Part shown: piece after piece, positions 43 through 18,157 of the stretch
How the letters are laid out: each line of letters starts with the position of its first letter
Position numbering within the stretch: the stretch's first letter is position 1
Virus record (IMG/VR): IMGVR_UViG_3300036949_000060
Direction: 5' to 3' (one strand)
DNA length: 20,000 bases
From: an uncultured virus (IMG/VR IMGVR_UViG_3300036949_000060)
Taxonomy: Duplodnaviria > Heunggongvirae > Uroviricota > Caudoviricetes
Program-made: the position numbers and the translations under genes
Notes under the pieces: generated by a model
The model's input: the letters and a program-made list of their open reading frames with translations, nothing else
The model's database searches: none
Told to the model about the DNA's origin: nothing

Positions 43-78
43 AAAAGAGCCCTCGTACCTAAGTACGGGGGCCTTTTT
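43..78. terminator. Probable bidirectional intrinsic terminator closing the minus-strand late/accessory region
   Basis: Stem GCCCTCGTAC (49-58), loop CTAA, stem GTACGGGGGC (63-72) with one G-U pair on the + strand; flanked by AAAAG on the left and TTTTT (74-78) on the right; about 70 bp past the stop of the last minus-strand gene. Confidence 0.75.
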
Positions 79-148: not shown

Positions 149-595
149 CTACATTTCATTTGCAATCTGCTGTAACTTCTGCTTGATCTGATCGTTGGGC
201 GCGTCATTCATAAGCTGGGTCAGCTCGGATTCAAAGTCGCCTTCCATGCTGTACCCATCGTCCATGCTGTAATCGTCCATGCTATATCCGTCGCGCGGAT
301 AGCGATCTCTTGAGTATCTATCCCTTGAATATCTACCCATGCTGTCACGTCTCGCATTACGACCTCTACCTCTTGCCTCGGAATAACCGCCATCGCGGGA
401 ATAATAACGATTGCGAGAATAGCCATCCATGCTATATCCGCCATTCATCATTTCTTCAGACTTGAGGAGATTCTTTTTTGCATGAGCGAGAGTGTCCATA
501 TACTGAACCTCAGTCATAGAGAGCTTTCCGCCCTTTTCTGCCTTGCGCTCAAGATCGTCGAGCTCGTCACAGATAAATTCTATGAGTTTGTGCAT
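149..595 (-). CDS. Hypothetical phage protein (148 aa) with helical termini and a central Arg/Tyr/Ser/Asp low-complexity repeat
   Basis: ORF; start moved to ATG at 595 (MHKLIEF) because AGAAAGGAGA lies at 601-610; centre has repeated YS(R/M)D motifs. Confidence 0.8.
   Translation of the reverse strand: MHKLIEFICDELDDLERKAEKGGKLSMTEVQYMDTLAHAKKNLLKSEEMMNGGYSMDGYSRNRYYSRDGGYSEARGRGRNARRDSMGRYSRDRYSRDRYPRDGYSMDDYSMDDGYSMEGDFESELTQLMNDAPNDQIKQKLQQIANEM
243..435 (-). repeat. Degenerate coding tandem repeats (YSMD/YSRD units)
   Basis: TCCATGCT at 243, 261, 276 and 426 on the + strand; protein reads GYSMDGYSRNRYYSRDGGYSE...RYSRDRYSRDRYPRDGYSMDDYSMDDGYSME. Confidence 0.7.
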
Positions 596-609
596 AGCGT
601 TCTCCTTTC

Positions 610-1065
610 TCACGCTGTTCTCTCAACAGTAATAGAAGCACCTCTTCTAACTGTGATTGAAGGTGTTGGTGTAGTGGTAGGATCATCTTCTGTGCCATCG
701 AAGTAAATTCCCGACACAGAGACACAACAGCCACAAGGAACTGTAACGGGAATCTCGGTGTTGATATGTCCGTATTCCTCAACAGCCTGTGGCGTGAAGA
801 TTGCTATGCTTTCGGGGACTATCACACCATTTATCGTGATTCCGATAGCAATGGGAGTGACCTCGCCACCCTCGGGAATCTGAACATTCGCCTGTACCCT
901 TACATTGTATCTTGCGAATCTGCCGGATGTGCTACCTTTCAGATTAAGAACCCCTACCGCAAGAGGAACTACATTTCCTGTGTTGCAAGGGATAGAAACC
1001 GCGCTGAATGGTATCGTGCCATTAAGGGCAACTAACGCATCGCTCGTTGTTACATATTCTGCCAT
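610..1065 (-). CDS. All-beta protein (151 aa), possibly a BclA C-terminal/C1q-like jelly roll
   Basis: RBS AGGAGGT (1071-1077) overlaps the upstream stop; alternating hydrophobic strands (NGTIPF, GVLNLKG, RYNVRVQANV, ASITVER); VPCGCC motif. The fold call is by eye. Confidence 0.7.
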   Translation of the reverse strand: MAEYVTTSDALVALNGTIPFSAVSIPCNTGNVVPLAVGVLNLKGSTSGRFARYNVRVQANVQIPEGGEVTPIAIGITINGVIVPESIAIFTPQAVEEYGHINTEIPVTVPCGCCVSVSGIYFDGTEDDPTTTPTPSITVRRGASITVERTA

Positions 1066-1076: not shown

Positions 1077-1946
1077 TTAATTCATAAAGGTATTTCCGCT
1101 ACATCCGCATCCACCGTTGCAAGTAAAGATAGGGGTTCTGCCGTACACGGGGGTTGAAGGAACAGGGCAGTTGGAAAGTCTGTTATAGAGCTGATCGACT
1201 TCATCACTGAATCCCTGAGAGATAAACGCGTTCTGAGCAGTCTGAGACTCGCGAAGGGTAGCCATGTTAAGCTGCTGGCGAAGCTGCGCGATGGTATCAT
1301 TCTTAGCATCCAGTTCAAGGGAGCAGAGCTTATCGAGAATAGCCTGAGTGCCCTTGTTCTGAGAGTCGATGATATCACGGGTGTTATTTGCGTCAGCAAA
1401 TCTTGTAGCATTAGCCTCGTTCTGAACGATGTTCTGAGTCTGACAGGTAGCAAGTCTGTTATCGCAGCAGCACTGAGCAAGCTGAGACTGAACAGAATTG
1501 AATCCCTGATTCATCGCGGTCTGTCCGGCAAATGCGGTCTGCATATTGGCGATCTGTCTTGCGTTTGCGCCCTGTTCTACTCCGGCAAAGCCGTTGGCAA
1601 GAGCCATCTGAGTGTCGGAACAGCAGTTGCAAAGCTGGGTTGACAAAGAAGAAATGCCGTCGCGGATTCCGGTAATGCCGTCATTAATCATCGCATCCCT
1701 GAAGCCGTTGTTGGTATTAGTCATAATGTTCTGCTGTCCGTTTGCGAGCCAAGGATAGTCACCGCCAAAACCGCCGCCGAAGCCGCCGTTTCCGCCCCAT
1801 CCATTGTTGCCCCATCCGAGAAGAAGCAGCAAAATGATCCAAGCCCAATCGCCGCCGAATGCGTTTCCGAATCCTCCCCCGTTTCCGCCGGTAGGAGAAA
1901 CAAGCATAGTTGCGCCAATTCCGCCGTTTTCGTCTGTTAAAGCCAT
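1077..1946 (-). CDS. Hypothetical protein (289 aa): Gly-rich N-terminus with a hydrophobic segment, Gln/Asn/Ala coiled coil with Cys clusters, Cys-rich tail
   Basis: Start moved to ATG at 1946 (MALTDENG) with AGGAGGT at 1953-1959; motifs GGDWAWIILLLLLGWGNNGWGG, QLCNCCSD, QLAQCCCD and CNGGCGC. Confidence 0.85.
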   Translation of the reverse strand: MALTDENGGIGATMLVSPTGGNGGGFGNAFGGDWAWIILLLLLGWGNNGWGGNGGFGGGFGGDYPWLANGQQNIMTNTNNGFRDAMINDGITGIRDGISSLSTQLCNCCSDTQMALANGFAGVEQGANARQIANMQTAFAGQTAMNQGFNSVQSQLAQCCCDNRLATCQTQNIVQNEANATRFADANNTRDIIDSQNKGTQAILDKLCSLELDAKNDTIAQLRQQLNMATLRESQTAQNAFISQGFSDEVDQLYNRLSNCPVPSTPVYGRTPIFTCNGGCGCSGNTFMN

Positions 1947-1956
1947 AATTTTACCT

Positions 1957-2028
1957 CCTATAACTTTTGTTAGGTTAGGGAATACACTCGTACGCTGTGT
2001 AGTCCGTATATAAGGCACGTCTGCCTTA
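1957..2028 (-). promoter_or_regulatory. Putative structured 5' leader with tandem hairpins upstream of the 289-aa gene
   Basis: Perfect 7-bp inverted repeat TAAGGCA-4nt-TGCCTTA (2011-2028); imperfect stem GGACTACAC...GTGTATTCC (2005-1979, minus strand); weak third stem near the RBS. Confidence 0.45.
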
Positions 2029-2241
2029 CTTTCTCATAAGTTGCTGTATCATGGGATTGTTTCTCATGCTCATAACCTGATTGATCTGTTGCTGAGAAAC
2101 CTGATTTGTGTTGATAAGATACTGAAGAATGCTGCTCGGGTCGTTCATATCCACATTATTTGGGATATTAAACCGTCTCGACAGCATTTGTAACGGGTTT
2201 TGCCGAAATTGCTGATACATTGAAAAGATATCATTCATCAT
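2026..2241 (-). CDS. Small Gln/Asn/Met-rich helical hypothetical protein (71 aa)
   Basis: ORF overlapping the upstream stop; repeated NP motifs (QNPLQML, NDPSSIL, NNPMIQQL). Confidence 0.75.
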   Translation of the reverse strand: MMNDIFSMYQQFRQNPLQMLSRRFNIPNNVDMNDPSSILQYLINTNQVSQQQINQVMSMRNNPMIQQLMRK

Positions 2242-2725
2242 CGTCGTCCTCGTCTTTTGGAACCTTCTTAGGTGCGGGTTTGGTTATGCTCTTGAGCTTT
2301 TCTTTAATTGCTTTTACATCAGCCTTAATCGCCTCAATTTCGCTTATTAATCCCTCAAGTGTATCATTTATTGCCTTGTTATCGTTTCTATCGTCCTCGG
2401 GCGAATTTGAGGGTTCCTCGGGTTCCTCTTTGACAAGCCTATACTTTTCAATCTTGGGTGAGTCCAACTGAGAAAAGCCCATTGATTTTTCCATGACATA
2501 CGGCTTACCCTCAATCTTGAAAGTGACACAATTTCCGAGAGCAACCGGATATGTGCGGACATATTCTTCATTTGGTGCTGTCAGGAACCCGCCGTTCTGA
2601 ATCTGCTGAATAGGCTGTTGAGGAATCTGCTGAGCCATCTGCTGAGGCATCTGCTGCTGCATCTGCTGCTGAGGCTGATATCCGTACTGCTGAGGATATT
2701 GATAAGGGCTGTAAAAGTTAGGCAT
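2231..2725 (-). CDS. Hypothetical protein (164 aa): Q/P/Y-rich disordered N-terminus, small globular domain, C-terminal coiled coil and acidic tail
   Basis: RBS AAAGGAG at 2731-2737; YQYPQQYGYQPQQQMQQQMPQQMAQQIPQQ; heptad pattern in LEGLISEIEAIKADVKAIKEKL. Confidence 0.8.
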   Translation of the reverse strand: MPNFYSPYQYPQQYGYQPQQQMQQQMPQQMAQQIPQQPIQQIQNGGFLTAPNEEYVRTYPVALGNCVTFKIEGKPYVMEKSMGFSQLDSPKIEKYRLVKEEPEEPSNSPEDDRNDNKAINDTLEGLISEIEAIKADVKAIKEKLKSITKPAPKKVPKDEDDDDE

Positions 2726-2727: not shown

Positions 2728-3105
2728 TTACTCCTTTCTATACCATACATACACGGGAATTTCTCTTGAAGAATCCCAACTATCATATATATCGCCGTCT
2801 ATCGCACAAACGGTATGCGTTCCAGTCCCCAAAACAAATACCCCTTTAGGATTATCTCGGCAGAAATCACTTATTGTGTAACAATTCGGGCATAAGTTGG
2901 GGATAGTTTTGCGGTAGAAACCTCTTTCACGAAGAACAGATCCCCAAACAGAATCCGCATGAGGCATATCGCCCATAGCAAGGCCGTTTGAACAAATTTC
3001 AATATAGGCATCCTCCCATTCTATATTAAGTGCTTTTGAGACGGCTCTAATAGCGCAGTCGTCTACACTTCTTCCTGTTGGGTTGGGGTTATAATGAATC
3101 CACAT
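2728..3105 (-). CDS. Putative papain-fold (C39-like) cysteine peptidase/hydrolase (125 aa)
   Basis: DCAIRA (Cys at a helix start), THTVCAIDG (His) and YDSWDS (Asp) in papain-like order; extra CPNC motif; AAGGAG upstream at 3114-3119. Confidence 0.65.
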   Translation of the reverse strand: MWIHYNPNPTGRSVDDCAIRAVSKALNIEWEDAYIEICSNGLAMGDMPHADSVWGSVLRERGFYRKTIPNLCPNCYTISDFCRDNPKGVFVLGTGTHTVCAIDGDIYDSWDSSREIPVYVWYRKE

Positions 3106-3132: not shown

Positions 3133-3180
3133 ACACTAAAAAAGCACCCTCACAATGATGTGAAAGTGCATTTTTAGTGT
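3133..3180 (-). terminator. Intrinsic terminator within a longer inverted repeat, after the HTH gene
   Basis: Minus-strand RNA GCACUUUCACA-UCAU-UGUGAGGGUGC followed by UUUUUU (11-bp stem with two G-U pairs); outer arms ACACTAAAAA/TTTTTAGTGT also pair. Confidence 0.75.
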
Positions 3181-3191: not shown

Positions 3192-3404
3192 TTATAGATG
3201 TTTAAAGACTTTTTCTTCGCATTTATAGACTATGGCTTTTGTTTGCCGAACAGACAGGCCAAATTCTTCGCTAAGCTTTTCAAAGGTGATACCGTCAAAC
3301 AATCTTCTACGCAAAATAGCTCTATCGCGCTCTGCATTCTTGCCAATTATCCATTCTGCAATCAGTGAGTCTAACTCTGACTTTGAAACATTCTCGGGGA
3401 TCAT
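3192..3404 (-). CDS. Small sigma-70 region-4-like helix-turn-helix DNA-binding protein (70 aa)
   Basis: ERDRAILRRRLFDGITFEKLSEEFGLSVRQTKAIV matches the sigma-4/GerE-type HTH pattern; too short to contain sigma region 2. Confidence 0.75.
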   Translation of the reverse strand: MIPENVSKSELDSLIAEWIIGKNAERDRAILRRRLFDGITFEKLSEEFGLSVRQTKAIVYKCEEKVFKHL

Positions 3405-3987: not shown

Positions 3988-4323
3988 CTACTGTAAACCC
4001 AATTTACATGCAATATAGCCGATTACGATGGAAACAACCGATATGACAATGTGTGATACCACTTTTCGCCATATCTCGCCATCGCGATCTTCCAATTTCC
4101 TGATTCTGTCGCTTTGATCGTTGAGGTTTTCGCCCTGCCTCGCCTGTTCGCGGACCATGTGCTCCATGTTGGTAGCAAGTCTTTCGACAGACGTGGCGAT
4201 TGATGAAATAGACTCAATAGCTAACTCAAGTTTTGAAATCCGGTGGTTTTGTCTGTTATCTTCTTCTTCCATTCGCTTAACAAACTCCTCGTGGACATCC
4301 TTGCGTACATACTCGTCTGACAT
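3988..4323 (-). CDS. XhlA-like coiled-coil protein with a C-terminal membrane anchor (lysis accessory/holin-like)
   Basis: Start moved to ATG at 4323 (GAGGTG upstream); coiled coil RISKLELAIESISSIATSVERLATNMEHM; C-terminal TM VVSHIVISVVSIVIGYIA; directly follows the endolysin. Confidence 0.7.
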   Translation of the reverse strand: MSDEYVRKDVHEEFVKRMEEEDNRQNHRISKLELAIESISSIATSVERLATNMEHMVREQARQGENLNDQSDRIRKLEDRDGEIWRKVVSHIVISVVSIVIGYIACKLGLQ

Positions 4324-4333
4324 TTCCCACACC

Positions 4334-5848
4334 TCATACAATCTTAATATACTGGCCTATCTGTATTAAATTCGGGTTTTTAATCCCGTTTGCCTCGGCA
4401 AGTGCTTTAACGGTAGTGTTATATCGCTTTGCTATGGCTGAAAGAGTATCTCCGCGCTTTACTGTAATACCCAAGATGGTTTTTGCCGTCTCGGTCACTA
4501 CATACGGCTTGCCGGTCTCTTTACGCTGAGCCACTATTTCATCGACCCTCTTTTGGACGGCTGAATAATCAAATCCGGCGTTTGTGAGCCTTATGCGCCT
4601 AAGAGGATTGTTGCCCCAAAGTCCGGCAAGAACCTCATTGGCTATCTGATCTACCGAAGCCTTTGCCTGAACGGGGACTATAACCTCCTGTTTAGGTAAA
4701 TCCGGTTGATCGACCCACTCAATAAATATTTCATCCTGATCTACGACAGTTCCAGCAATCTTAGGATCACGGATGTAGTTTACAGACCCGCCGTACTGCC
4801 AAATCTCAATAAGAGAAATGCTATTAAGATGCGGCTCTTTGTTTGAATACCTTGCAACCCAATGAGGGAAAAGAACAAGTTTATTATCGTCAAATCGGCT
4901 ATTAAAATGGCTTTCACTTGTATAGATGCCGCAAGCATATCCGGCGTTTATCATGGTCTGACAGAAGGTTTGGATAATCTCGGTCAGGTGAGTATATCCC
5001 TGATTGAGCATCGCCCCCTCCACATCATAGTAAACATGGGTGATTGCTTTTCCCTGAAGGCACTGTATAAAGAAATTAGCCTCATTGATTGCGTCGGTCG
5101 TGCTGAATGCGTTTCCAAAAAAGTAAGCCCCGATCTTCCATGCTCCGGCCCTTGCCTGAGTGTAGAAATTCTCAAACTGAGAATCTTTATAAGGCACCTT
5201 ATTTGAGGTATCAGCTCCGCCCGCCTTTATAATAACATACGAAAAGCCCTCATTCCACGCTTTTTTTAAATCAAATCCATTTTGCCATCTTGAAACGTCT
5301 ATCCCCTTGGGGTGAGTCGGAATAGAGGGGGTCTCGTTTGAGTATTCTACCCATGGCAGAAGGCCGTGATCCGTCCATGATCTTCCCTTAGAAGTTGAGC
5401 CTTTATAAAGATACCTCTCACCTTTTTCATTGACGTAGGTATACTGAACCTTGCTGGCCCAGTCTGAAGTACACTCTATAACGTTGAATACCTCATTCTG
5501 ATAGGTGAAATCACCGACGTATATGCCGGAATGCTCATGGCCTTTATCAGAGATATAGAGGTATGTTCCGGCTTTTTTAAGCTGCGTAAAGTCTTTTGAT
5601 CTTTCCGTGCATTGTAAAAGCAAGTGATATCCGTCAACATCGCCCGTAGGAAAATCTTTCGGGCTTATGTAAGAGCCTATGACTCCTGTGGGAGACCAAT
5701 TTGCAAGGACGCATTTTATGAGATTCCAACAATCAAACGAGTACCTTTTGCCGTCATAATATCCGCAATTATACGGAAATTTGTTGTTATAGTAATTGGG
5801 TACATCATGGGCCAGCTTTAACTTTTCGATAAAATCTTTAACAAGCAT
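4334..5848 (-). CDS. Endolysin: NlpC/P60-CHAP-like domain + GH25 muramidase + CW_7 (Cpl-7) repeat + LysM
   Basis: FDCWNLIK...HSGIY (Cys/His); KGIDVSRWQ...YYDVE...WVARY...IWQY...VDQD (GH25); [15 protein letters not shown]...VQKRVDE (CW_7); [38 protein letters not shown] (LysM); RBS GAGGAGG. Confidence 0.92.
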
Positions 5849-6085
5849 TTAGCCCTCCTCGGTGTTTCTTTCGTATCGGTCTGTTTTGAGCACAAAACCC
5901 GTGTCGTCTATGATCTCCCCGAAAACATATTTGCAATTTGCATCACCCACACATGCCCTCATACTTCCGTACAGATTAATCAGGGCAAGCTCCATAGTGT
6001 TGAAATGGGTAATAGTCCTTTCGTGGGTTTCGTTTGCCATAGTCTTTAATAGTAATACATTCATCGGAGGTTCTTCTTTATTCAA
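5849..6085 (-). CDS. Small hypothetical protein between the tail-tip genes and the endolysin (start uncertain: 6085, 6064 or 6040)
   Basis: Fills the gap exactly, with its stop abutting the endolysin ATG and the endolysin RBS inside its 3' end; no clear RBS of its own. Confidence 0.6.
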   Translation of the reverse strand: MNKEEPPMNVLLLKTMANETHERTITHFNTMELALINLYGSMRACVGDANCKYVFGEIIDDTGFVLKTDRYERNTEEG

Positions 6086-6560
6086 GTTCCAAAGATATTG
6101 TTATCGCTACTTGTTTTCCTTTAGGTACTACGATAGGTTTACCGAGAACGGTACGGGTCAAAAGTACGTTATGTGCTTTGCTGTTTGCTGTTCCCGATTT
6201 TTGAGCGTAGCCGACCTCGGTAATTGTGACATCACTTTCCGAATTGTTCGCATACGTTGTGGTAAGGTTTCGGATATACGGATAAGTTGCACTTGCAACA
6301 AAACCATTGGATACGAACGTTAAAACGGGTGAGTCCACGGCGTTTGATTCCGCTAGTATATAATCGTCTTTATCTTCGGGTGTGTTGCCAAAACCAACAT
6401 CTATATATGAACCCGCAAGGCTATTCGAGAAAAATGCCGCCGCATTGTTGGTATTTGCGACTACAGTTCCACCGCCGTTGTTTTGCGTGACAGTAGTTCC
6501 GTCGAAACCAACAAAACTTTGGTTTGAGAAGTGCCACCTTAAATAATTTGTAAGTTGCAT
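6078..6560 (-). CDS. Putative tail fibre/baseplate-associated beta protein (160 aa)
   Basis: RBS AAGGAGA; motifs IDVGFGNTP..DYIL, TITEVG and LLTRTVLGKPIVV resemble fibre-attachment domains; tail-tip position. Confidence 0.6.
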   Translation of the reverse strand: MQLTNYLRWHFSNQSFVGFDGTTVTQNNGGGTVVANTNNAAAFFSNSLAGSYIDVGFGNTPEDKDDYILAESNAVDSPVLTFVSNGFVASATYPYIRNLTTTYANNSESDVTITEVGYAQKSGTANSKAHNVLLTRTVLGKPIVVPKGKQVAITISLELE

Positions 6561-6570
6561 CGTATCTCCT

Positions 6571-7017
6571 TTACGATATTACATAACTGATCTGCTCTTT
6601 AATCCTTGACCGCATTTGTCCGACCATTGAATACATTTTCATATTTCCACCGCCCCCGCTCGGAGCGTATACGTTTTGGGTTGTTCCGTTGATTGTGATT
6701 TCTGCGATTTTCTCGCCCTTTGTGTATATCTGATTCCATGATACAGAGTCGCCACTACCGCCCCCGCCCGTAACGTTTACAACAGTGCGGTCATTGGCTG
6801 AATCGTCTGTTACCGTAACCCCGCCCGTAAATTGCAATTTTCCCCTTGCGGGCATATCTGTACCCGAGGGGTTTTCTATTGTGTGACCCGCTGAACCGCC
6901 CCCACCCATATTTGAGTCGATATTATCCATGTTGCGGTTATAGCTTTGTAGGAAGTCCCCGAAAGGGTCACTCGGTGCGGGTTTTTCTAATCCGTAGTTG
7001 GGTGTTAAACTTGACAT
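6571..7017 (-). CDS. Short tail fibre/adaptor protein (148 aa)
   Basis: N-terminus LTPNYGLEKP...NRNMDNID resembles phage fibre anchor segments; small beta modules separated by poly-Gly linkers. Confidence 0.65.
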   Translation of the reverse strand: MSSLTPNYGLEKPAPSDPFGDFLQSYNRNMDNIDSNMGGGGSAGHTIENPSGTDMPARGKLQFTGGVTVTDDSANDRTVVNVTGGGGSGDSVSWNQIYTKGEKIAEITINGTTQNVYAPSGGGGNMKMYSMVGQMRSRIKEQISYVIS

Positions 7018-7019
7018 TT

Positions 7020-8090
7020 TTAATACCTCACAAGTCCCGTCTTAAGATTTGACGAATTGCAAACAATCCATTCACCGCTAATCGCTTTGGGTGTCAGATC
7101 ATCGGGTGGGGTTCCTGTGTAAAGCGGGTTAACCTCTTTAAAATCTGTAACAAAAACGCTGTTTGCGATTCTAAAAGTTGCATATAAGCCATCATCACGC
7201 ACGATTGCCCTTTTTGCCAAAATACCGCTATCCATGTTTCCGACTAATTCAAGAGGGACGGGTTTTTCTATGTTGGGCGGTATCTTATACCGTCCGAGTT
7301 TCCAATTTGCATAGATTTTTGTCGGATACCACAAAAAACCATTTACGGGAATTGCTGACACATATCCGACTTTTGAAAAACCATCTGATCCCGATTGACT
7401 TGCGGTTAGTTTAAATACATGAGAGCCGTCTAATACGCTTACTCCGTACACTTTCGCATAATGTGAGAACCATGTAGGCGAGTCATAGGATATAAAATTC
7501 GTATTGTCATACATACCGAGGAACGGTGCACCCAATATCTGTGAACTCGTTACGGTCTGCCCTACGGTATTGACCGCTATTACTTTTGCTGTTGCATTGT
7601 CGGCTATTTCTCCCGCCACAATGTAAACAACATTTCCCGCACGAACCGCCTGTGGTATTCCGAGGTCTAAATCTGTGGCTATCGCCGTTCCGTTCAACGA
7701 AATAGTTTGTAAAATGGTATCGCTTGTAAGGTCAAAGAATACCAATTCATCGTCAGCGTGGTTTTCAACTATTCCTGTGTTTGTGCCTTTAATTCTGACA
7801 AGCCATGATGTGTTGTTGTACGATGTCCCCTGTTTGTATATATTGGCGGGTATCGTGTGTGATACTTCCGTCCACGGTGAAGCCGATGTGTCAAACTTGT
7901 ATAACTTGTCGTCTCTGAAACTTGTTATCCAACAGTATTGACCCGTTTGGTCGAACTCGGCAAAGTCGCAAGGAAAATTCATATAGTCAACATCGGGAAT
8001 TTCACCCGTCCCGCTGTCGCTACGTTCATCGTCATAACCTCGCCCGAATAAAGAAAACCTCATTTTGTATTTTCCGATAGTTCCGCTCAT
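7020..8090 (-). CDS. Beta-rich, possibly beta-propeller tail-tip/receptor-binding protein (about 356 aa)
   Basis: Start at 8090 gives an ATGA overlap with the upstream stop; blade-like motifs KLYKFDT, ELVFFDLTSD, KVIAVNT and KVYGVSVLDG. Confidence 0.6.
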   Translation of the reverse strand: MSGTIGKYKMRFSLFGRGYDDERSDSGTGEIPDVDYMNFPCDFAEFDQTGQYCWITSFRDDKLYKFDTSASPWTEVSHTIPANIYKQGTSYNNTSWLVRIKGTNTGIVENHADDELVFFDLTSDTILQTISLNGTAIATDLDLGIPQAVRAGNVVYIVAGEIADNATAKVIAVNTVGQTVTSSQILGAPFLGMYDNTNFISYDSPTWFSHYAKVYGVSVLDGSHVFKLTASQSGSDGFSKVGYVSAIPVNGFLWYPTKIYANWKLGRYKIPPNIEKPVPLELVGNMDSGILAKRAIVRDDGLYATFRIANSVFVTDFKEVNPLYTGTPPDDLTPKAISGEWIVCNSSNLKTGLVRY

Positions 8091-9580
8091 ACCAAGTCGC
8101 TCCATAAAGTAGGGTTATCCGTGACGGTCATATAAACTTTTGCCGAATGTAAACCCTCTCCGAAAATTGTTTGAGGGTTTGAACAATGAAAGACTCTTTC
8201 TCCTTTAAAAGATTTTTCCTCGGTAACGTTCATTTCGAGGTCGGTTTCATCGTCAACGATAAGCCTTACATTGACCGTGGCTGTGGCACTCAATACCATG
8301 TCAGCCGTTAATATCATTTCTATTTTTTGTGCGAATGTCTTTTGCTCGAACTCTATTTCCGTCACAAGGGTTTCGGTTGAACCGATATTTATCGGTTCGG
8401 TGTTGGTGTTATAAAGTAACCAAAAGTCCTTGTCACCGATCTCCTGTCCGTTGGAATACTCGGAAGAAATACCCTCTAATGTCTTGGTAAATCTATCCTG
8501 GGCATCGGCAAGCAAGGGATTATCTCCGGCACACTTAACCGACATCGTGCCGTCAATCTTATAGGTTATCTCGGTTATCGCTCCGAGGTCGTAGACATCA
8601 GCTTGGTTATCAACGAATGTCAGGACATCGCCAACATCGTAAATAGGGATCAAAGGCATATCCGAGGAATAAGGCACATAATAAACCCCATCCCACGCAT
8701 CTATGATCTCTTGTAAGGCTTCGAGTCTGTTGGTTTGATTCGTGAATTGTAAGAACGGATTCGTTCCCAAATCAAGGACTAATCCACCTGTGTTTGAGTT
8801 GGAGACATACTCTTGTACCCCCTCGTTCTTATACGTTGCATACAAGCCATCATAGGTGGTTCTGAAGTCTGATAGATCAGAAGTATACCTAAAGTTGGAA
8901 TGAACTGTGTCGGCTGAATTAGAACTATAAGAGCCTATATACAAATATCCATCTCTGCCGATGTAGGCATATCCACCCAAATAAGCTGTGATGTACGAAA
9001 GAACATCTCGCCATGTCTTTGCATCTGCCACGGAATCCGCAAAGCCTGTCTTTCTTCGTCCGTTCGGCATGGCTTCAATCTGTGCGGATGTAGTTCCGAG
9101 AGTAACGCCGCAAGCTACGCAAGCTTGTGACAGCCACACATAAGGACTCTGAATCGAGTTATTAAGTGATGCCGAGAAACTGACCGCATCGAACTTGGTC
9201 ATGTTGTCATAAGCTTTAATCGTGATGTGGTCGAGTGCCTGGTTCGCTTCACTTATCGTGAAGATTCCCATAGGGATGACATCTGCGGCACCGTCTATGG
9301 AAAAGCTTAACGAAACTTCTCCGTTATAGAGTTCATATCTCGACACAGCCGGAAGTACAACTTCAAGGGATAAGGTGGATGCGTAAGCTGTTCCAACATT
9401 AAGGCTCTGCGATGAAATGGATCGTGTGATTGACCCTGAAACTATCTTTCCGTTTGCCGAGTCCTTATCCGCATCAAAAGCATAAGTGACACCACCAACT
9501 GTTGTGATAGTGCCACTCCACTTCATGTGCCTGGTATTCGATTTTATTTTTGTGAGAAAATCTGCCGATGCTGAATACAT
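8087..9580 (-). CDS. Tail-tip hub (Tal-like) protein (497 aa)
   Basis: Follows the Dit-like gene; motifs IPMGIFTISE, ITIKAYDNM, YIGRDGYL and YDVGDVLT are typical of siphophage tail hub proteins. Confidence 0.7.
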   Translation of the reverse strand: MYSASADFLTKIKSNTRHMKWSGTITTVGGVTYAFDADKDSANGKIVSGSITRSISSQSLNVGTAYASTLSLEVVLPAVSRYELYNGEVSLSFSIDGAADVIPMGIFTISEANQALDHITIKAYDNMTKFDAVSFSASLNNSIQSPYVWLSQACVACGVTLGTTSAQIEAMPNGRRKTGFADSVADAKTWRDVLSYITAYLGGYAYIGRDGYLYIGSYSSNSADTVHSNFRYTSDLSDFRTTYDGLYATYKNEGVQEYVSNSNTGGLVLDLGTNPFLQFTNQTNRLEALQEIIDAWDGVYYVPYSSDMPLIPIYDVGDVLTFVDNQADVYDLGAITEITYKIDGTMSVKCAGDNPLLADAQDRFTKTLEGISSEYSNGQEIGDKDFWLLYNTNTEPINIGSTETLVTEIEFEQKTFAQKIEMILTADMVLSATATVNVRLIVDDETDLEMNVTEEKSFKGERVFHCSNPQTIFGEGLHSAKVYMTVTDNPTLWSDLV

Positions 9581-9942
9581 TAGTACGCTGTCACCTCAAA
9601 CGATACATCCCAATGTGTTTCTGTGCCGTTGTCTTTAATAAGTTCAAAGGACAAGTTCTGTATAAATCCGCCAAAGGTCGCTTCTGCTAATGTCGCAGGA
9701 GAATAATAAGATATCGTCACGCTCTGACCCGTGACATAATACTGCTGAATCTTCTGATACCATGTTGAGTTTATGGTAGAGGACACAGACAGATGGGGAA
9801 CTCCCAACCGCTTTATATCACGCTGAATAGTTCCCGCTTCTGTCTCTTTTACTGTTTCCTTGTTCTGCAAGGTGAGATTATAACTCCCTTTGGTGAGGGG
9901 GAAGTAATCTGTATTAAACTTTAATTTGACTTTTCTGTTCAT
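9580..9942 (-). CDS. Distal tail (Dit-like) protein (120 aa)
   Basis: Immediately after the tape measure gene with TAATG coupling; ETEAGTIQRDIKR and C-terminal WDVSFEVTAY pattern. Confidence 0.65.
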   Translation of the reverse strand: MNRKVKLKFNTDYFPLTKGSYNLTLQNKETVKETEAGTIQRDIKRLGVPHLSVSSTINSTWYQKIQQYYVTGQSVTISYYSPATLAEATFGGFIQNLSFELIKDNGTETHWDVSFEVTAY

Positions 9943-11894
9943 TATCTACCCCCACTAACCAAAGCGTGCCTCTGCTGTGCATTGAGAATGATCGTGTCTA
10001 ACCTTTCCTGTCCGATATAAACAGGAATTACTATGTCACCGGTTTCGGAATTGGTATTCTGGCCAATCAATCCGTAAAGTGTTTCATTCGGATCCGCTAT
10101 CGCTGAATAATTCGGTGCTGCCTGAACAGTGCTGAAGTCTTCAGCTATCGTTCCCGTTACAGCCCCTATCGCATCGGTGATGAGGTTCATGTTTTCTTTA
10201 ACACCTGATGCGAACAGTTCCATCATGTCCGGTGCGTATGTATGGAAATTCGAAAGAGGTCCTTCTTCGGGTTCGGAGAATCCCAAGAGGCTCTTTATCG
10301 TACTTGCCAGATCTGTGACAGTGCTCTTCAGTTTTTCCCACTTAGCCTTAATGCCATCGATAAAGTTATCGATCAGATCTTTGCCCCAGTCCTTAGCAGC
10401 TTCGACCTTTTCCATGAATCCGTCTTTGACCGACTGAACAAGTTCTGCACCTGTAGTGACCAGCTGACCGATTACCATCAGCACGCCTTCTATCAGCTTA
10501 AATATGAGCTCTGCTCCGGCTTCAAGTATCAACGGAGCCGCCTGAATGAGGGCACTCAACAGATTCTTGACTATCTCAGGAGCTTTTTCTATCAGCTTAG
10601 GCAGTGCCCTGATGAGGCCTTCCGCAAGGGCTATGATCAGCTGAAGCGCTGCTTCAACGAGCCGGACTAATGTATCAGGATCCGTGAGCTTATCAACGAT
10701 GGTAAGCACCACGTCAACAATGGCAGGAATCAGTGTAGGCAAGGCCTGTATGAGACCATCTGCCAATGCAAGGATCAGCTGTAATCCGAGATCTATCAGC
10801 ATGGGGAGCATGCTGAGTATCGTTTCTATGATCATGTTGAAGAGGTCCGGCAATATTTCAACTATTACACTCAGTATCTCGGGAAGTGCCGCGACTAAAG
10901 CCTGCAGCAGGCCAGAAGTTGCTTCTATCAGGGGCGGCAGAATCTGCTGGAACATGGCAGGAAGCTTCTCCGTGATTATAGGTACAATCATTGGAAGTGC
11001 ATTTGCAATTCCCTGCAGTGCATTTAATATCGTAGGAATCAGATTATCAAGCGCTGTCGCTCCAGTCTGAACCACGTTGTTTATAAGCAAACCAAGGTCT
11101 GCGTTCGGATCAGCAAAGCCTGTTACCAAATTACCCCAAGCCGCCTTGACGGATGCCACAGATCCCGAGATGGTGCTTCCCGCTTCTTCTGCGGTAGCGC
11201 CGGCAATGTTCATGTTCTCCTGTACGATGTGGATAGCTTCGACAACATCCGCAAAGTTGTTAATATCAAGGGAGCCTTCGATATAGCCTTCCATTTCTTC
11301 GGCATCACGCAGGAGCCTTTCCATCTCTTCTTTTGTACCGCCGTAACCGAGTTTAAGGTTATCGAGCATGGTGAAGTTTTGCTTTGCAAATCCGGCATAA
11401 GCATTCTGAATGGATTCCATTGAGGTACCCATTCGGTTTGCATTATCCGCCATGTCGGTGATAGCTTCATCGGCATATGCCGCCGCTTGCCATGCGTTAT
11501 CCCCAAGCGATGATGTGAGGGATGCCGCAAAGCCTGTGACGGTTTCCATGTAGTCATTTGCTGAAAGTCCCGCTGTTGCGAATGCGTTGGCCGCATTTGC
11601 CATGACTTCATCTGCGGTATCTCCGAAAAGAACTTCAACACCACCGACAAGCTGTTCATAATCTGCAAAGGATGCAGTCGCGGCTGTTGTTAAAGCAGTA
11701 GTTCCGGCAGCGGCTGCGCCTACAGCCTTCACCGCTATTCCACTGAGGGCCTTGGCTCCTGCACCGAAGGCAGAGGCGAAAGCACTTCCTCCACTTGTTC
11801 CGGCAGAACCCATTGCCTCTTCGATTTCGCCGGTCATACCCTCCATCGAAGGCCTGATCTGTAAATAAGCTTCACCTATTGTGTTGTTCGGCAT
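9942..11894 (-). CDS. Tape measure protein (650 aa)
   Basis: N-terminal IGEAYLQIRPS; Ala/Gly-rich helices; YEQLVGGVE..F and GFAKQNFTMLDNLKLGYGGTKEEMERLL motifs; Pro-punctuated amphipathic repeats; follows the tail chaperones. Confidence 0.93.
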   Translation of the reverse strand: MPNNTIGEAYLQIRPSMEGMTGEIEEAMGSAGTSGGSAFASAFGAGAKALSGIAVKAVGAAAAGTTALTTAATASFADYEQLVGGVEVLFGDTADEVMANAANAFATAGLSANDYMETVTGFAASLTSSLGDNAWQAAAYADEAITDMADNANRMGTSMESIQNAYAGFAKQNFTMLDNLKLGYGGTKEEMERLLRDAEEMEGYIEGSLDINNFADVVEAIHIVQENMNIAGATAEEAGSTISGSVASVKAAWGNLVTGFADPNADLGLLINNVVQTGATALDNLIPTILNALQGIANALPMIVPIITEKLPAMFQQILPPLIEATSGLLQALVAALPEILSVIVEILPDLFNMIIETILSMLPMLIDLGLQLILALADGLIQALPTLIPAIVDVVLTIVDKLTDPDTLVRLVEAALQLIIALAEGLIRALPKLIEKAPEIVKNLLSALIQAAPLILEAGAELIFKLIEGVLMVIGQLVTTGAELVQSVKDGFMEKVEAAKDWGKDLIDNFIDGIKAKWEKLKSTVTDLASTIKSLLGFSEPEEGPLSNFHTYAPDMMELFASGVKENMNLITDAIGAVTGTIAEDFSTVQAAPNYSAIADPNETLYGLIGQNTNSETGDIVIPVYIGQERLDTIILNAQQRHALVSGGR

Positions 11895-12261
11895 TGATTA
11901 TTTTCTCCCAAGCTTCGTTGAACTCATCTGCGGTAAGGAACACTTCCGCTTCTTCTCTCTTTTCTTCTGTCAATGCTTTAAGGATTGACGGAGGTTGATT
12001 TCTATTTTTTGACCCGTCTTTTGTCTTTGACCAGTGTAGCCAGGCTAACTCGTCTACCATTCGGGCCGTAAGTATCTGTTCCAATGTGAGCTTGCTGTTT
12101 GCGAGAGCCAGTTTGACTCTGGAATCATCTCTTAATCCAAAACAAAGAACAGCCACCAGCTCCGGTGACTGTTCTCTGTAGTTGAATAAGTGATAGGTTT
12201 CTGCAAGATCACAAATCAGTGAATCCTCACACACCGCAATGCAGTGCGCGAGGAATATCAG
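11872..12261 (-). CDS. Tail assembly chaperone, C-terminal (T-like) frame, probably expressed by -1 frameshift
   Basis: The frame stays open from the slippery site (CTG at 12261: LIFLAHCIAVCEDSLICDLAETY...) to 11872; the GTG at 12234 has no RBS. Confidence 0.8.
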   Translation of the reverse strand: MIFLAHCIAVCEDSLICDLAETYHLFNYREQSPELVAVLCFGLRDDSRVKLALANSKLTLEQILTARMVDELAWLHWSKTKDGSKNRNQPPSILKALTEEKREEAEVFLTADEFNEAWEKIINAEQHNR

Positions 12262-12533
12262 TTTTTTATATTCTTCTTTTCTTCGATGATCTCCTTCGCG
12301 GTATTCATTACCACATCAGACGGAACAAAACCATCATTCTGGCTTGCGATGTGTTCCATCAGCCTATTAAGCTGTTCTTTTCCGAACATAAGCTCGACCA
12401 TCCTCTGAGCTGCAAGGACCTTCTCTACATTAGAACCGCTTTCTGTCTTTGCGGCCTCAGATGTAAAGCGCCAGTCAGTCAGTATTCTTTCATCTATTTC
12501 GTACTCAAATCCACTTTTTGTGATACCCTGCAT
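12258..12533 (-). CDS. Tail assembly chaperone (G-like, 91 aa)
   Basis: Lies between the major tail and tape measure genes; RBS AAGGAGAGAGG; ends ATA AAA AAC TGA. Confidence 0.85.
   Translation of the reverse strand: MQGITKSGFEYEIDERILTDWRFTSEAAKTESGSNVEKVLAAQRMVELMFGKEQLNRLMEHIASQNDGFVPSDVVMNTAKEIIEEKKNIKN
12261..12267 (-). other. Programmed -1 ribosomal frameshift heptamer A AAA AAC
   Basis: X XXY YYZ heptamer in the correct phase directly before the chaperone stop; the -1 frame joins the downstream ORF. Confidence 0.85.
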
Positions 12534-12556
12534 ATCCTCTCTCCTTACTGGTCCCT

Positions 12557-13120
12557 TTATACAGAGGGAACCGTTGCTGTGATGTACTCGTAATGATATC
12601 CGCCGGCGGTATCAGGTACATCGGTGATCGTGATGTTGTAGCCGATAGCCTCATCATCCTTATAGGTGATCTCACCGAGCTCAGAAATGGTTCCGTTAGG
12701 AACTACGATTCTCTTTGCTCTGCCGCCCTTAAGGATCATGTCGAAAACCCAACATCCGGAAGTCATCTCTTCTGCGGTTGCCTTGATCGCCAGATTTCCG
12801 TTTCCATCTACGGTTACATTGGCTGAACCGTAAATAGTCTTAAGAACGTCTACATTCAAGGACTCGATAAGAGTGAATGCGAAAGTGTCGGGTCTGTCGG
12901 TCTGAAGATTGAGAACGGTATCACCGCCCCAAGCTTTGACAGAATCGCTCTCGGGTGAGTTGTTGTTTACGACACCATCTTCGGAAACATATCCGAGCTC
13001 AGCAAATGCCGCATCGAGTGCAGCTGTTGCGCTGGTAGGAAGTGTGGTTCCGAGAGGAGCCCAGTGAACAGCTCCGCCGACTTTAGGCTTACCTACTGAT
13101 ACTTTTGTTGCATCGGGCAT
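12557..13120 (-). CDS. Major tail (tube) protein (187 aa)
   Basis: Start moved to ATG at 13120 (AAAGGAGG upstream); motifs APLGTTLPT, LGYVSEDGV, VKAWGGDTV and FTLIESLN are typical of siphophage tail tubes. Confidence 0.9.
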   Translation of the reverse strand: MPDATKVSVGKPKVGGAVHWAPLGTTLPTSATAALDAAFAELGYVSEDGVVNNNSPESDSVKAWGGDTVLNLQTDRPDTFAFTLIESLNVDVLKTIYGSANVTVDGNGNLAIKATAEEMTSGCWVFDMILKGGRAKRIVVPNGTISELGEITYKDDEAIGYNITITDVPDTAGGYHYEYITATVPSV

Positions 13121-13133
13121 AATTAAGCCTCCT

Positions 13134-13472
13134 TTAATAAAACAGATTATAGTAACTACGATAGCGGTACCGCTTAAGTTCAGTGTCGGTGTTATCATTA
13201 CCGCCGCCGATCTCACAGGTTATGTCTGTCGTTTCGTGAAGCTTATCCATTGCTGTTCTGAGTTTTTCATCAAGAACAGCCGCTGCGTACTTGCTCGGAC
13301 CGTAGGATCTGAACTCGAGTGTCACAGCATCAATGCGGTTAGTTCTTCCAATGTCTACACGCTGGAAGATTATGAACGATTCCGGGACCTGCTTCGGTAT
13401 CTCCAAGACCACAGGGATGTTATCCTCTGCAAATTCCGCATCAAGAAAGTTTTTCACTCTTTCTTCAATCAT
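13134..13472 (-). CDS. Tail terminator/completion protein
   Basis: Directly upstream of the major tail gene; AAAGGTGA before ATG 13472; motifs SYGPSKYAA and YRYRSYYNL. Confidence 0.7.
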   Translation of the reverse strand: MIEERVKNFLDAEFAEDNIPVVLEIPKQVPESFIIFQRVDIGRTNRIDAVTLEFRSYGPSKYAAAVLDEKLRTAMDKLHETTDITCEIGGGNDNTDTELKRYRYRSYYNLFY

Positions 13473-14343: not shown

Positions 14344-14350
14344 AACTGCC

Positions 14351-15447: not shown

Positions 15448-15459
15448 AATTTTTCCTCC

Positions 15460-15939: not shown

Positions 15940-15992
15940 TTGATATCCTCCTAAAAGAGTAAAATTCCTCGACTTGGCGCGAGTAGCCTATT

Positions 15993-16017: not shown

Positions 16018-16020
16018 GAT

Positions 16021-16758: not shown

Positions 16759-16762
16759 TTAT

Positions 16763-18148: not shown

Positions 18149-18157
18149 TTCTTATCC

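Follow-up and report, generated by a model that had tools for sequence, protein, structure and literature searches.

A long cysteine-bearing helical rod from an accessory gene cassette carried by phages of the gut and rumen

The window, that is, the whole stretch of 20,000 nucleotides that was analysed, belongs to a siphophage in which the gene of a long helical protein, here called the rod, belongs to a cassette that is located downstream of the lysis genes and flanked by terminator-like hairpins (Table 1). The product of this gene, P0001, translated from window:1077-1946:-, comprises 289 residues and a stop and begins MALTDENGG, its initial methionine being common to 70 of 76 relatives and pointing to the same start in the homologs. 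The open reading frame, the glycine-flanked segment (residues 20-62), the 12 cysteines and the strings on which the original prediction had drawn are all present, on the minus strand: QLCNCCSD at residues 104-111 (nt 1614-1637), QLAQCCCD at residues 155-162 (nt 1461-1484) and a C-terminus reading PVPSTPV...CNGGCGC. Contigs from RNA libraries of two studies partly cover the gene, one (X3) matching window positions 1286-1637 with 1 difference and 1682-1926 with 0 differences, another (X22) matching 656-1235 and 1214-1612; DNA carry-over into such libraries is possible, and gaps in the coverage do not amount to silence.

Table 1. Rod gene, its parts and the surrounding cassette, in window positions
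Feature	Position	Strand	Basis or remark
70-aa sigma-70 region-4-like DNA-binding protein (regulator)	3192..3404	minus	PF04545, TIGR02937, both below cut-off
Terminator-like hairpin between regulator gene and cassette	3144..3169	minus	pattern scan only
B125, 125-aa putative Cys-His peptidase, conserved C72-P-x-C75	2728..3105	minus	PHROG 3754
C164, 164-aa protein: N-terminus rich in Gln/Pro/Tyr, then beta region and acidic coiled-coil tail	2231..2725	minus	PHROG 21718
D71, 71-aa Gln/Asn-rich protein, Q+N 32%	2026..2241	minus	sequence, composition
Shine-Dalgarno AGGAGG	1954..1959	minus	7 nt before ATG at 1946; strong ribosome-binding site
P0001 CDS, 289-aa rod protein	1077..1946	minus	translation; stop codon 1077-1079
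Acidic leader, residues 1-20, no Lys/Arg	1887..1946	minus	column and charge counts
Gly/aromatic-rich region around hydrophobic run, residues 20-62	1761..1889	minus	sequence; Gly fraction
Hydrophobic core W-A-W-I-I-L-L-L-L-L-G-W, residues 34-45	1812..1847	minus	AF2: short helix 35-45
Single continuous helix, residues 80-259, Cys 'rungs' 106, 159-161, 208, 260	1170..1709	minus	AF2, 76-row alignment
CCC motif, residues 159-161	1464..1472	minus	column counts, 76 relatives
Tail rich in Pro, ending in C-x3-C-x-C knot, residues 260-289	1080..1169	minus	column counts
F151, 151-aa partner, BclA/C1q/TNF-like jelly roll, invariant C27, C113, C114	610..1065	minus	AF2, Foldseek
G154, 154-aa protein, repeat core rich in Arg/Asp/Tyr/Ser/Gly, flanked by helical ends	149..613	minus	sequence, composition
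Terminator-like hairpin ~75 nt past last cassette gene	49..72	minus	scan; TCTTTTC tail

The gene order is identical across 82 loci, among which tblastn found homologs of G154 in 56 and of C164 in 17; D71 was found in 43 and the regulator, whose matches to PF04545 (E 1.8e-4) and TIGR02937 (E 6.9e-5) are both below cut-off, in 48. Linkage was counted over 108 related loci with full flanks, where the F151 family is present in 102, starting no more than 250 nt from the rod stop in 92, and a small peptidase in 105, being of a Cys-His type in 100 and of an HExxH type in five, with both types together in none. The rod is the most widely conserved part of this cassette, a mobile accessory element in phages of the gut and rumen, of which it would form the 'stalk', and it had rightly been picked out as the core product of the module. 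Bacteroidota phages carry an analogous set, with a Cys-bearing beta protein, a beta/coiled-coil protein, an Arg/Asp/Tyr-rich protein of 74-77 residues and an HExxH peptidase; hhalign comparison of the F151 and B125 profiles with the neighbours of the rod homolog of cr116_1 gave no similarity. None of the five cassette partners has an N-terminal hydrophobic region or an export signal, which argues for assembly in the cytoplasm, and PADLOC found nothing in the cassette.

The naming of B125 as a putative peptidase is drawn solely from its conserved Cys/His/Asp pattern, in which D16, C17, C72 and H97 are invariant and C75 and D108 near-invariant. B125 itself has no Pfam match, its 49 homologs give only scattered chance-level matches, and the one match of its profile in the PDB is to a glutaredoxin CPxC (E 0.13). 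Peptidase_C39 (PF03412) was absent at E <= 1 from B125 and the 49 homologs, as well as from five cassette-bearing phage records in a scan whose control matched in 7 of 14 genomes; among the named ESM Atlas clusters nearest to B125 is one in which 15% of members carry Peptidase_C39, a weak match (score 0.91). The occurrence of two unrelated peptidases in one slot marks proteolysis as part of the mechanism, and proteolytic maturation of some component of the kit is likely.

The AF2 model of the rod consists of one unbroken helix from residue 80 to residue 259, about 27 nm long and with pLDDT 85-97 across residues 120-260, and contains no globular domain, in keeping with the long non-globular coil foreseen from the sequence. 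The periodicity of hydrophobic residues, roughly estimated, is 3.6-3.8 residues and not 3.5; a second hydrophobic segment is lacking, and the C-terminal tail is polar. Searches with the rod against Pfam, NCBIfam, PADLOC and the PDB gave no match, Foldseek gave 0 matches of the model in the PDB, and no usable match was obtained among the named ESM Atlas clusters. The sole family match is PHROG 16490, of unknown function (E 2.6e-27, residues 7-283 against positions 5-282 of 286), an annotation that an archaeal-virus homolog also carries in its record. The expectation that no characterised virion protein would be matched with confidence thus holds across the Pfam/NCBIfam, PHROG, PDB profile and Foldseek searches. 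The best match of the rod profile in the PDB, the ZorA tail at E 0.013, was attributed to coiled-coil composition. Longer or fused forms of the rod were not found, which is weak evidence given the design of the search, and among the matches listed for the N-terminal module (residues 1-82), a good part of which the full-length query had also retrieved, there were only proteins of 166-299 residues and no other architecture or functional name. No description of the rod family or the cassette was found in the literature, and the accessible part of the genome paper on Butyrivibrio phage Ceridwen gives the cassette genes as hypothetical (PMC7372960).

The cysteines of the rod stand at positions 106, 108, 109, 159, 160, 161, 168, 208, 260, 276, 280 and 282, a content of 4.2%, whereas 24 of the window's other proteins together have 0.91% (50 of 5512 residues), and this richness goes beyond chance because conservation is high among 76 full-length relatives of 35-64% identity, over which the column counts were taken. 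Nine of the 12 are conserved, each in 54-72 of the 76, as had been anticipated: C106 in 66, C159 and C160 in 55 each, C161 in 58, C208 in 69, C260 in 54, C276 in 66, C280 in 68 and C282 in 72. Of the two cysteine clusters proposed as motifs, the one at C159-C161 is kept in 55-58 relatives, whereas C108 and C109 occur in none; C168 occurs in eight, and position 179, an Asn in the window rod, is Cys in 61. The CCC motif is present too in homologs from crAss-like phages, Bacteroides phages and archaeal viruses, in which the architecture of the rod is preserved at 28% identity. Other positions are conserved as well, among them G81 (75 of 76) and F82 (76 of 76) at the start of the helix and P261 (73) and V267 (74) in the tail. 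The 'rungs' are spaced roughly 50 residues apart. An internal repeat had been proposed from the two quoted Cys motifs, both of which exist, but the self-alignment is weak: hhalign aligns residues 78-170 with 171-262 at E 0.0011 and a probability of 20%, pairing C106 with C208 and C159 with C260. Some relatives (P0127, P0267) contain extra copies of an LCxGFAGVN segment.

The N-terminus is acidic, as originally predicted, with no Lys or Arg and three Asp or Glu ahead of the hydrophobic run (family means 0.21 and 2.7), and at residues 14-18 the window rod has M-L-V-S-P in place of the family motif M-P-V-A-P. The leader types of the rods vary together with the arrangement of the peptidase. The glycine-rich part reads GGNGGGFGNAFGG...GWGNNGWGGNGGFGGGFGG, without triplet (G-x-y) periodicity; G20 is kept in 47 and G21 in 61 of the 76 relatives, the surrounding region being Gly-rich throughout, and the Gly fraction is 0.4 before the hydrophobic run and 0.6 after it. 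The tryptophan of this segment, W36, was expected to be conserved and is kept in 69 of 76. The proposal of a membrane anchor fared worse: the strictly hydrophobic run measures 4-13 residues in the family (median 10.5) and 10 in the window rod and, judged by its length in the sequence, would hardly suffice for an ordinary transmembrane helix. A rough estimate of the 19-residue insertion energy, on approximate scale values, is above 0 in 73 of the 76 relatives and below 0 in only three, charge counts over the 76 give no positive-inside signal at the N-terminus, and the Kyte-Doolittle maximum over 19 residues is 1.41 for the rod vs 2.2-2.35 for the holin-type proteins of the window.

At least 8000 database proteins match the rod, in 1052 clusters at 50% identity (E <= 0.001), and the kit of rod, knob, small protease and sticky low-complexity proteins is found in thousands of gut and rumen phages. 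Genome contigs were scanned with a 12-row rod alignment. Homologs of the rod occur in Firmicutes phages, in crAss-like and Bacteroides phages and in viruses assigned to Methanomassiliicoccales; for most carriers the label (MAG labels) is Clostridia, Lachnospiraceae or Bacilli, and the cultured carriers are Butyrivibrio phage Ceridwen and Bacteroides phage C3_41T2LP, the closest cultured carrier infecting Butyrivibrio. The position of the gene varies. In cr116_1, the homolog lies between the small terminase and capsid genes, with a holin and an L,D-carboxypeptidase nearby, and in other phages the rod gene adjoins recombination genes or an integrase. A tyrosine integrase is present in only one of four complete cassette-bearing phage records and a serine recombinase in none of the four; since three of these carriers lack an integrase, the cassette appears to be needed outside lysogeny. 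No rod match was found in a sister record, G001, which is 100% identical across window positions 5859-20000 (tail, head and packaging genes) and has different lysis genes followed by repressor and replication genes; as this record is only 87% complete by CheckV, the absence there is not absolute. Its lack of a rod, together with the position of the cassette after the lysis genes and between hairpins, argues that the rod is not a core part of the virion.

The adjacent partner F151 is modelled with pLDDT 95, and Foldseek places at the top of its PDB matches the C-terminal domain of BclA (3tyj; E 6.9e-7, TM 0.69/0.76), F-BclA (9h38), ExsF (9h3d) and BxpB (8d02), followed by C1q and TNF ligands; ExsFA, the spike knob of phage phi812 and the tail of cyanophage A4 are matched as well. 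Pfam scans of 60 F151 homologs gave only scattered chance-level matches. The BclA C-terminal domain, ExsF/BxpB, C1q and TNF ligands are trimers, and it is only from the predicted fold of F151, through these structural matches, that a trimeric state of the rod would follow. A tie between the knob and the terminal Cys knot of the rod is suggested by 150 loci, in which the two rods truly without the knot (L084, L167) are both without a knob gene and knot-bearing rods miss the knob gene in 5 of 146 cases. The knot-knob association rests on two lineages. A complex prediction with three F151 chains and one full-length rod, run without controls, returned a score of 0.00 and a mark of 0.32, values that speak neither for nor against contact of the two.

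These observations can tentatively be read, at somewhat short of even odds, as the rod being a subunit of a non-virion, peptidase-matured rod-and-knob assembly. From N- to C-terminus, the rod comprises about 20 acidic leader residues, a Gly/aromatic region with a short Trp-capped hydrophobic plug, a helix of about 180 residues with conserved cysteine 'rungs', a Pro-rich tail and the C-x3-C-x-C knot. Rods would join as a parallel oligomer, most probably a trimer, whose plug end may anchor or self-associate, seated either in a lipid membrane or in some hydrophobic core, and whose Cys-knot end may bear the trimeric BclA/C1q-like knob F151, while the small cassette peptidase would mature one part of the kit. 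The kit would be made in the cytoplasm during infection, would not belong to the virion, and might become cross-linked by disulfides on meeting oxidising conditions. The habitats of the carriers are strictly anaerobic and disulfides may form poorly there; the cysteines of the rod could bind metal instead.

A comparable arrangement is the exosporium nap of the Bacillus cereus group (BclA on ExsFA/BxpB), in which a long rod bears a trimeric TNF/C1q-like jelly roll, the fold to which F151 is closest (BclA C-terminal domain, F-BclA, ExsF, BxpB, ExsFA), and which is assembled, as the phage kit would be, in the cytoplasm without export signals in a Cys/Tyr/Gln-rich context that includes a protease; BclA is cleaved at its N-terminus before attachment. 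The two differ, however, in that the phage rod is alpha-helical whereas the BclA stalk is a collagen triple helix, and in that the TNF/C1q-like domain resides in the adjacent F151, rod and knob being separate proteins. Sequence similarity is absent, and the carriers are phages, including those of non-sporulating Bacteroides and of archaea.

It is rather unlikely that rod and knob instead form a dispensable two-piece trimeric virion fibre, docked by the N-terminus of the rod on capsid, neck or tail and binding glycans of the host or the gut in the manner of an adhesin, as do phi29 head fibres, fibritin whiskers and reovirus sigma-1. Viral fibres usually follow this plan, in which a coiled-coil rod ends in a trimeric C1q-like knob (reovirus sigma-1, the head fibre of phi29, T4 fibritin, collagen-like phage fibres), and the BFVD matches of F151 include the C-terminal knobs of collagen-like proteins and proteins labelled 'tail fiber protein', 'fibritin neck whiskers' or 'virion component', its fold in predicted viral structures typically being the distal domain of virion fibres. 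This typical use of the fold favours the fibre, as do the names 'spike protein/glycoprotein' and 'outer capsid protein/viral fiber' given in GenBank to homologs from crAss-like phages, and the phi812 and A4 matches and the place of the cr116_1 gene beside capsid genes point the same way. The cassette moves, however, among siphophages, crAss-like phages and archaeal viruses, which would share no docking site, and it is missing from the sister phage, whose head and tail genes are identical. In the window, the cassette stands outside the virion module, past the lysis genes and set off by a terminator-like hairpin, and has a regulator of its own. Fibres do not usually come with accessories such as a W-I-I-L-L-L-L-L plug, a peptidase of their own and three proteins of low complexity, and the profile search of the PDB matched the rod to no solved fibre.

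An improbable reading places the rod as a membrane stalk in the host, passing through the envelope or into the cytoplasm and blocking superinfecting phages or host defence. The conserved hydrophobic segment and the 'moron-like' placement beside lysis or integrase genes are compatible with such a role, and the ZorA tail match has been counted for it, though it reflects coiled-coil likeness only. Against it stand the short hydrophobic run without a positive-inside signal, the lack of a PADLOC match, the three of four complete carrier records without an integrase, partners without export signals and the weight of a five- or six-gene kit, heavy for exclusion.

Very improbable is a role as a lysis helper, in which the rod, as a spanin-like or fusion-peptide protein, would disrupt or fuse membranes late in infection with its Gly-rich hydrophobic end, perhaps exposed by cleavage. 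The rod shares with i-spanin Rz and class I fusion proteins a hydrophobic element near the N-terminus and, after it, a long coiled-coil-like stretch that contains cysteines, Cys-linked coiled coils occurring in Rz, and its Gly/Trp-rich segment resembles viral fusion peptides; its gene lies just 3' of endolysin and holin-like genes here, and in cr116_1 near a holin and the carboxypeptidase. Unlike these proteins, the rod has no lipoprotein partner, no C-terminal anchor and no hairpin of two heptad repeats, its helix being single and its hydrophobic run only about 10 residues long. Most carriers infect monoderm hosts (Clostridia, Lachnospiraceae, Bacilli), for which a spanin is not needed, the gene elsewhere adjoins recombination genes or an integrase, and G001 lyses via another cassette, without a rod.

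Hardly credible, finally, is the double-glycine precursor, one of the two options originally proposed, in the form of a secreted membrane-active bacteriocin-like toxin cut after Gly-Gly by the neighbouring Cys peptidase: the acidic leader, the plentiful Gly-Gly pairs, the conserved Cys...His...Asp protein of the cassette and the weak ESM Atlas cluster recall C39 systems, but no C39 signature was detectable, no ABC exporter or immunity gene was seen in the window (27 proteins scanned for an ABC transporter), in 5 of 108 loci the Cys type gives way to an HExxH peptidase, cleavage after any N-terminal Gly-Gly would leave about 265 residues of a 27-nm rod and no small mature peptide, and the knob and low-complexity partners would have no place.

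For the non-virion rod-and-knob assembly, a more specific form is conceivable, though rather unlikely: a host-independent kit, carried by phages of bacteria and archaea in animal guts, that builds a cross-linked rod-and-knob layer or particle of spore-coat-like chemistry, produced while the cell is dying and set free when it lyses. Its parts would be the Cys-runged rods, the BclA-like knobs, the Tyr/Arg/Asp-rich and Gln-rich proteins and the maturing protease, and its use might be, for example, the bundling or shielding of progeny or their attachment to gut glycans. The rod family is very large, yet it has no name, Pfam family or experiment, and it crosses viruses of Firmicutes, Bacteroidota and Methanomassiliicoccales, as few accessory phage genes do; this broad host span suggests a job that follows from life in the gut or from some trait shared by all cells and not from one type of envelope. 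Whatever its role, the rod provides a natural, very long helix with regularly spaced cysteine sites, and if the layer or particle reading is true, the kit would be a new class of late function in phages, with the rod as its scaffold.

Translation of window positions 1077-1946 on the minus strand gives a protein of 289 residues, here called the rod, which begins MALTDENGG and ends CNGGCGCSGNTFMN; the coordinates and every string quoted in the original prediction were recovered in this frame. A longer, GTG-initiated frame of 313 residues is unlikely, since the ATG at 1946 lies 7 nt 3' of AGGAGG and 70 of 76 full-length relatives begin at that methionine. The protein contains 40 Gly, 33 Asn, 24 Gln, 12 Cys and just 3 Lys, cysteine making up 4.2% of residues compared with 0.91% across 24 further proteins from the window. 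Searches of Pfam, NCBIfam and PADLOC produced no match, PHROG 16490 (function unknown) matches the rod end to end (E 2.6e-27), and a word-indexed protein search returned at least 8000 candidates, all at E <= 0.001, none of those scored bearing a name beyond 'hypothetical protein'. The rod family is very large: querying 1.84 billion cluster representatives exhaustively gave 1052 clusters at E <= 0.001, of which 507 reached E <= 1e-10 and 123 reached E <= 1e-30.

Conservation was assessed in an alignment of the 76 full-length relatives (35-64% identical). The expected conservation of the cysteines holds for nine of the 12, which are retained in 54-72 relatives, C108, C109 and C168 being private or rare; at position 179 the family usually has Cys and the window's rod Asn. 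The Trp that opens the hydrophobic run is kept in 69 relatives and followed by seven positions of conserved aliphatic character, G81 and F82 at the start of the helix are kept in 75 and 76, and the conserved tail reads C-P-V-P-x-x-P-V-Y-G-x-x-P-I-F-T-C...G-C-G-C. The AlphaFold2 model built from this alignment consists of a short helix (35-45) and a single unbroken helix (80-259), predicted to be about 27 nm long at 1.5 Å per residue, with pLDDT of 85-97 from about residue 120 and low values elsewhere; with no globular domain, it agrees with the non-globular helical rod first proposed. Foldseek of the model against the PDB gave no match, and the rod profile against PDB sequences gave coiled-coil hits of chance level only (best, ZorA tail, E 0.013). 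In a rough Fourier analysis the hydropathy periodicity of the alignment peaks at 3.6-3.8 residues, not 3.5, a hint only of a near-straight bundle instead of a classical heptad coil. The conserved cysteine sites lie about 50 residues apart (106, 159-161, 208 and 260), and the two helix halves align weakly with these sites coinciding (E 0.0011, probability 20%). Some relatives extend the rod by repeats of a Cys-bearing 'LCxGFAGVN' unit; in P0127 (367 aa) and P0267 (361 aa) a unit of about 22 residues (LCxGFAGVNQN...) is repeated, so rod length varies by whole units. Interchain disulfide rings occur at the coiled-coil ends of fibrinogen and matrilins, which makes the similar picture originally drawn for the rod chemically reasonable.

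The hydrophobic segment of the rod is clearly functional, being conserved even in crAss-like and archaeal-virus homologs. For the proposed membrane anchor this end is nevertheless the weakest point: among the 76 relatives the run of strictly hydrophobic residues spans 4-13 positions (median 10.5), and an approximate 19-residue insertion energy is negative in three only. The best Kyte-Doolittle 19-mer scores 1.41 in the rod versus 2.2-2.35 in the window's three holin-type proteins. Leaders carry a mean of 0.21 Lys/Arg and 2.7 Asp/Glu; in the following 40 residues the mean is 0.67 Lys/Arg. The segment might insert into a bilayer, perhaps as a bundle in an oligomer, or into a core of protein or lipid.

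The window covers the late region of a siphophage, with all genes on the minus strand.

Features of the window in order of transcription
Feature	Position	Strand	Remark
Large terminase, portal, protease-like VG15 protein, scaffold, HK97-type capsid protein		-	packaging/head genes
Connectors, tail tube, tape measure, then tail-tip genes		-	
Endolysin	4334-5848	-	GH25, CW_7, LysM
XhlA-like protein	3988-4341	-	
Small membrane protein, 105 aa	3480-3797	-	single-pass
Sigma-70 region-4-like protein, 70 aa	3192-3404	-	likeness to region 4 only, below Pfam and NCBIfam cut-offs
Terminator-like hairpin	3169-3144	-	
Cys/His protein, 125 aa		-	first gene after hairpin
Gln/Pro/Tyr-rich protein, 164 aa		-	
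Gln/Asn-rich protein, 71 aa		-	
Rod, 289 aa	1077-1946	-	
Beta protein (knob), 151 aa		-	
Arg/Asp/Tyr/Ser-rich protein, 154 aa	149-613	-	3' of 151-aa gene
Second hairpin	72-49	-	after 154-aa gene

In the endolysin, about 180 N-terminal residues without Pfam match precede the recognised domains. The 105-aa membrane protein, encoded after the holin-like genes and before the regulator, is found again in 31 of 82 related loci; its PADLOC match to KwaA is weak (E 0.0022). In tblastn with the window's cassette proteins these 82 loci share one gene order, the rod being accompanied by the 125-aa protein in 72, the 151-aa protein in 72, the 154-aa protein in 56, the 71-aa protein in 43 and the 164-aa protein in 17. 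The 70-aa sigma-like gene precedes the cassette in 48; in the window the first hairpin separates it from the cassette, and its product is a possible dedicated regulator. Length and sequence differ widely among copies of the last cassette protein (window 149-613; L064 3014-3325; L166 8062-8295), which always retains, flanked by helical ends, a repeat core rich in Arg, Asp and Tyr (RDRYSRDRY, DRDYDRDYDRE, RDYRDYRDYRDY). An analogous set follows the rod in the crAss-like phage cr116_1 and in C3_41T2LP, a Bacteroides phage; it comprises a beta protein with cysteines (136 and 180 aa, respectively), a protein that combines beta and coiled-coil regions (168 and 177 aa), an Arg/Asp/Tyr/Glu-rich protein (74-77 aa) and an HExxH protein (131 and 154 aa per record annotation), the last labelled PolyVal metallopeptidase in the C3_41T2LP record.

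Iterated profile searches covered every ORF of 164 loci (80 on viral contigs, 80 on genome contigs and four in GenBank phages); partner counts refer to the 108 loci whose flanks reach 3 kb or more upstream and 2.5 kb or more downstream. Of these, 100 carry the 125-aa family and five a small HExxH protein, giving one or other type in 105 and both together in none, which bears out the peptidase anticipated in the rod's module. That two unrelated peptidases share one slot and never co-occur is the strongest indication here of proteolysis as part of the kit's mechanism. HExxH proteins replace the Cys/His protein at L064 (3325-3648), L092, L095, L111, L129, L002 (6832-7227) and L166 (8770-9234), the gene being seemingly split into two ORFs in L095 and L111. 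The 125-aa protein (window 2728-3105, minus strand) has an invariant D16-C17 and H97, a near-invariant D108 and a conserved C72-P-x-C75; the order and spacing of the first three are typical of papain-like enzymes and suggest a putative peptidase. Pfam scans of the protein alone and of 49 homologs linked it to no family, a PDB profile search found no known family, PF03412 was not found in five phage records at E <= 1, and an ESM Atlas search gave a weak lead only. Its sole PDB profile match is a glutaredoxin CPxC site (E 0.13), and in so Cys-rich a kit C72-P-x-C75 could indicate that the protein acts in redox chemistry, alongside proteolysis or in its place. The rod leader co-varies with the peptidase arrangement: with M-P-V-A-P the 125-aa gene lies upstream in 77 of 79 loci, with N-G-I-Q-P-T-V-E-L it lies downstream, and S-P-A-D-V-A-A-V occurs with either peptidase type. 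This co-variation may reflect shared descent and is no proof that the leader is a substrate.

The knob family is found in 102 of the 108 loci, starting within 250 nt of the rod stop in 92; four of the other six (L063, L153, L002 and L166) have another Cys-bearing, beta-rich protein there. Its AlphaFold2 model is a jelly roll (pLDDT 95) with three invariant cysteines (C27, C113 and C114), best matched in the PDB by the BclA C-terminal domain (3tyj, E 6.9e-7, TM 0.69/0.76), followed by F-BclA (9h38), ExsF (9h3d), BxpB (8d02) and ExsFA (7r1m) and, at lower rank, a TNF-like lectin, C1q-like proteins and TNF ligands. These matched proteins are trimers. Among 150 loci with enough downstream sequence, 141 have both the terminal Cys knot of the rod and the knob gene, five have the knot without a knob gene of this family, and two have the knob gene and a knot lost through apparent frameshift. 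The only rods truly ending without cysteines, in L084 and the archaeal virus vir215, both lack a knob gene, a pattern that, in two lineages, fits the Cys knot as a candidate attachment site for the knob. In two genome-contig copies (L136 and L095) the end of the rod reads ...PVYRKNSDI..., an apparent frameshift that removes the Cys knot and could be assembly error or decay. Among predicted viral structures the knob fold occurs in two settings: by itself, in phage proteins of about 135-145 aa, and as a distal knob on collagen-like, tail-fibre and whisker proteins. The main rival explanation is that rod and knob form a dispensable virion fibre.

Judged by gene content, the rod cassette is accessory rather than core virion. 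The nearest virus record among those searched, the sister phage G001, is 100% identical over window 5859-20000 (tail, head and packaging genes) and diverges exactly at the endolysin gene start (window 5848-5860; compared region of G001, 13500-31536, locus L005). Beyond this point it carries a different holin, other lysis genes, a divergent repressor and genes for replication, and no rod match was found throughout its 31.5 kb (87% estimated completeness). Since identity extends to the endolysin start and a different lysis set follows, the lysis-plus-cassette block looks to have been exchanged as one unit. Elsewhere the rod adjoins recombination genes (C3_41T2LP), lies between small terminase and capsid genes (cr116_1) or adjoins a retroelement, between a diversity-generating reverse transcriptase and an integrase (vir215).

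Carriers matched at protein level in the phage collection include the Butyrivibrio phage Ceridwen (66% identity), crAss-like phages, viruses from lemur and mouse gut and numerous phage contigs from human gut, and the crAss homolog as query adds C3_41T2LP and two viruses assigned to Methanomassiliicoccales. These two are vir215 (L167; NC_092586 31753-32634), whose rod carries a pair of CCC motifs and lacks the terminal Cys knot, and BK063680. Scanning a single genome for each prokaryote species gave 93 relatives. All of the 80 listed belong to metagenome-assembled or uncultured records, the majority of rumen and gut origin; their labels are chiefly Clostridia, Lachnospiraceae, Ruminococcus, Acutalibacteraceae, Erysipelotrichaceae and Bacilli, some are Bacteroidales, and a few records are probably mis-binned. 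The sequencing run containing the whole window is a wastewater metagenome, and about a quarter of the window's sampled words are present in many bovine, sheep and other gut runs. RNA-library contigs from two studies cover parts of the rod gene, which is compatible with, and no proof of, its transcription.

Established here are the predicted rod-like fold, the conserved cysteine pattern, the accessory status and a knob and a peptidase as near-obligate partners. From these we infer an assembly in which the rod would be a parallel oligomer, a trimer if it matches its knob. One end would hold the knob through the Cys knot, the opposite end would be buried by its Gly/aromatic hydrophobic plug, proteolysis would mature the assembly, and the Cys rungs would lock it by disulfides or possibly by metal instead. 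In composition the kit's partners, with a Gln/Pro/Tyr-rich N-terminus, a small Gln/Asn-rich protein, Arg/Asp/Tyr repeats and a protease, recall insoluble materials such as spore coats. On this likeness rests a bolder and less probable reading, in which the kit would build a cross-linked layer or particle of rods and knobs outside the virion. All five partner proteins lack a hydrophobic signal at the N-terminus, so any meeting with the rod would take place in the cytoplasm or after lysis. A tyrosine integrase is present in one of four complete cassette-bearing phage records and a serine recombinase in none, and Ceridwen is reported in lytic growth only (PMC7372960), which together argue that the kit serves lytic infection and not lysogeny alone.
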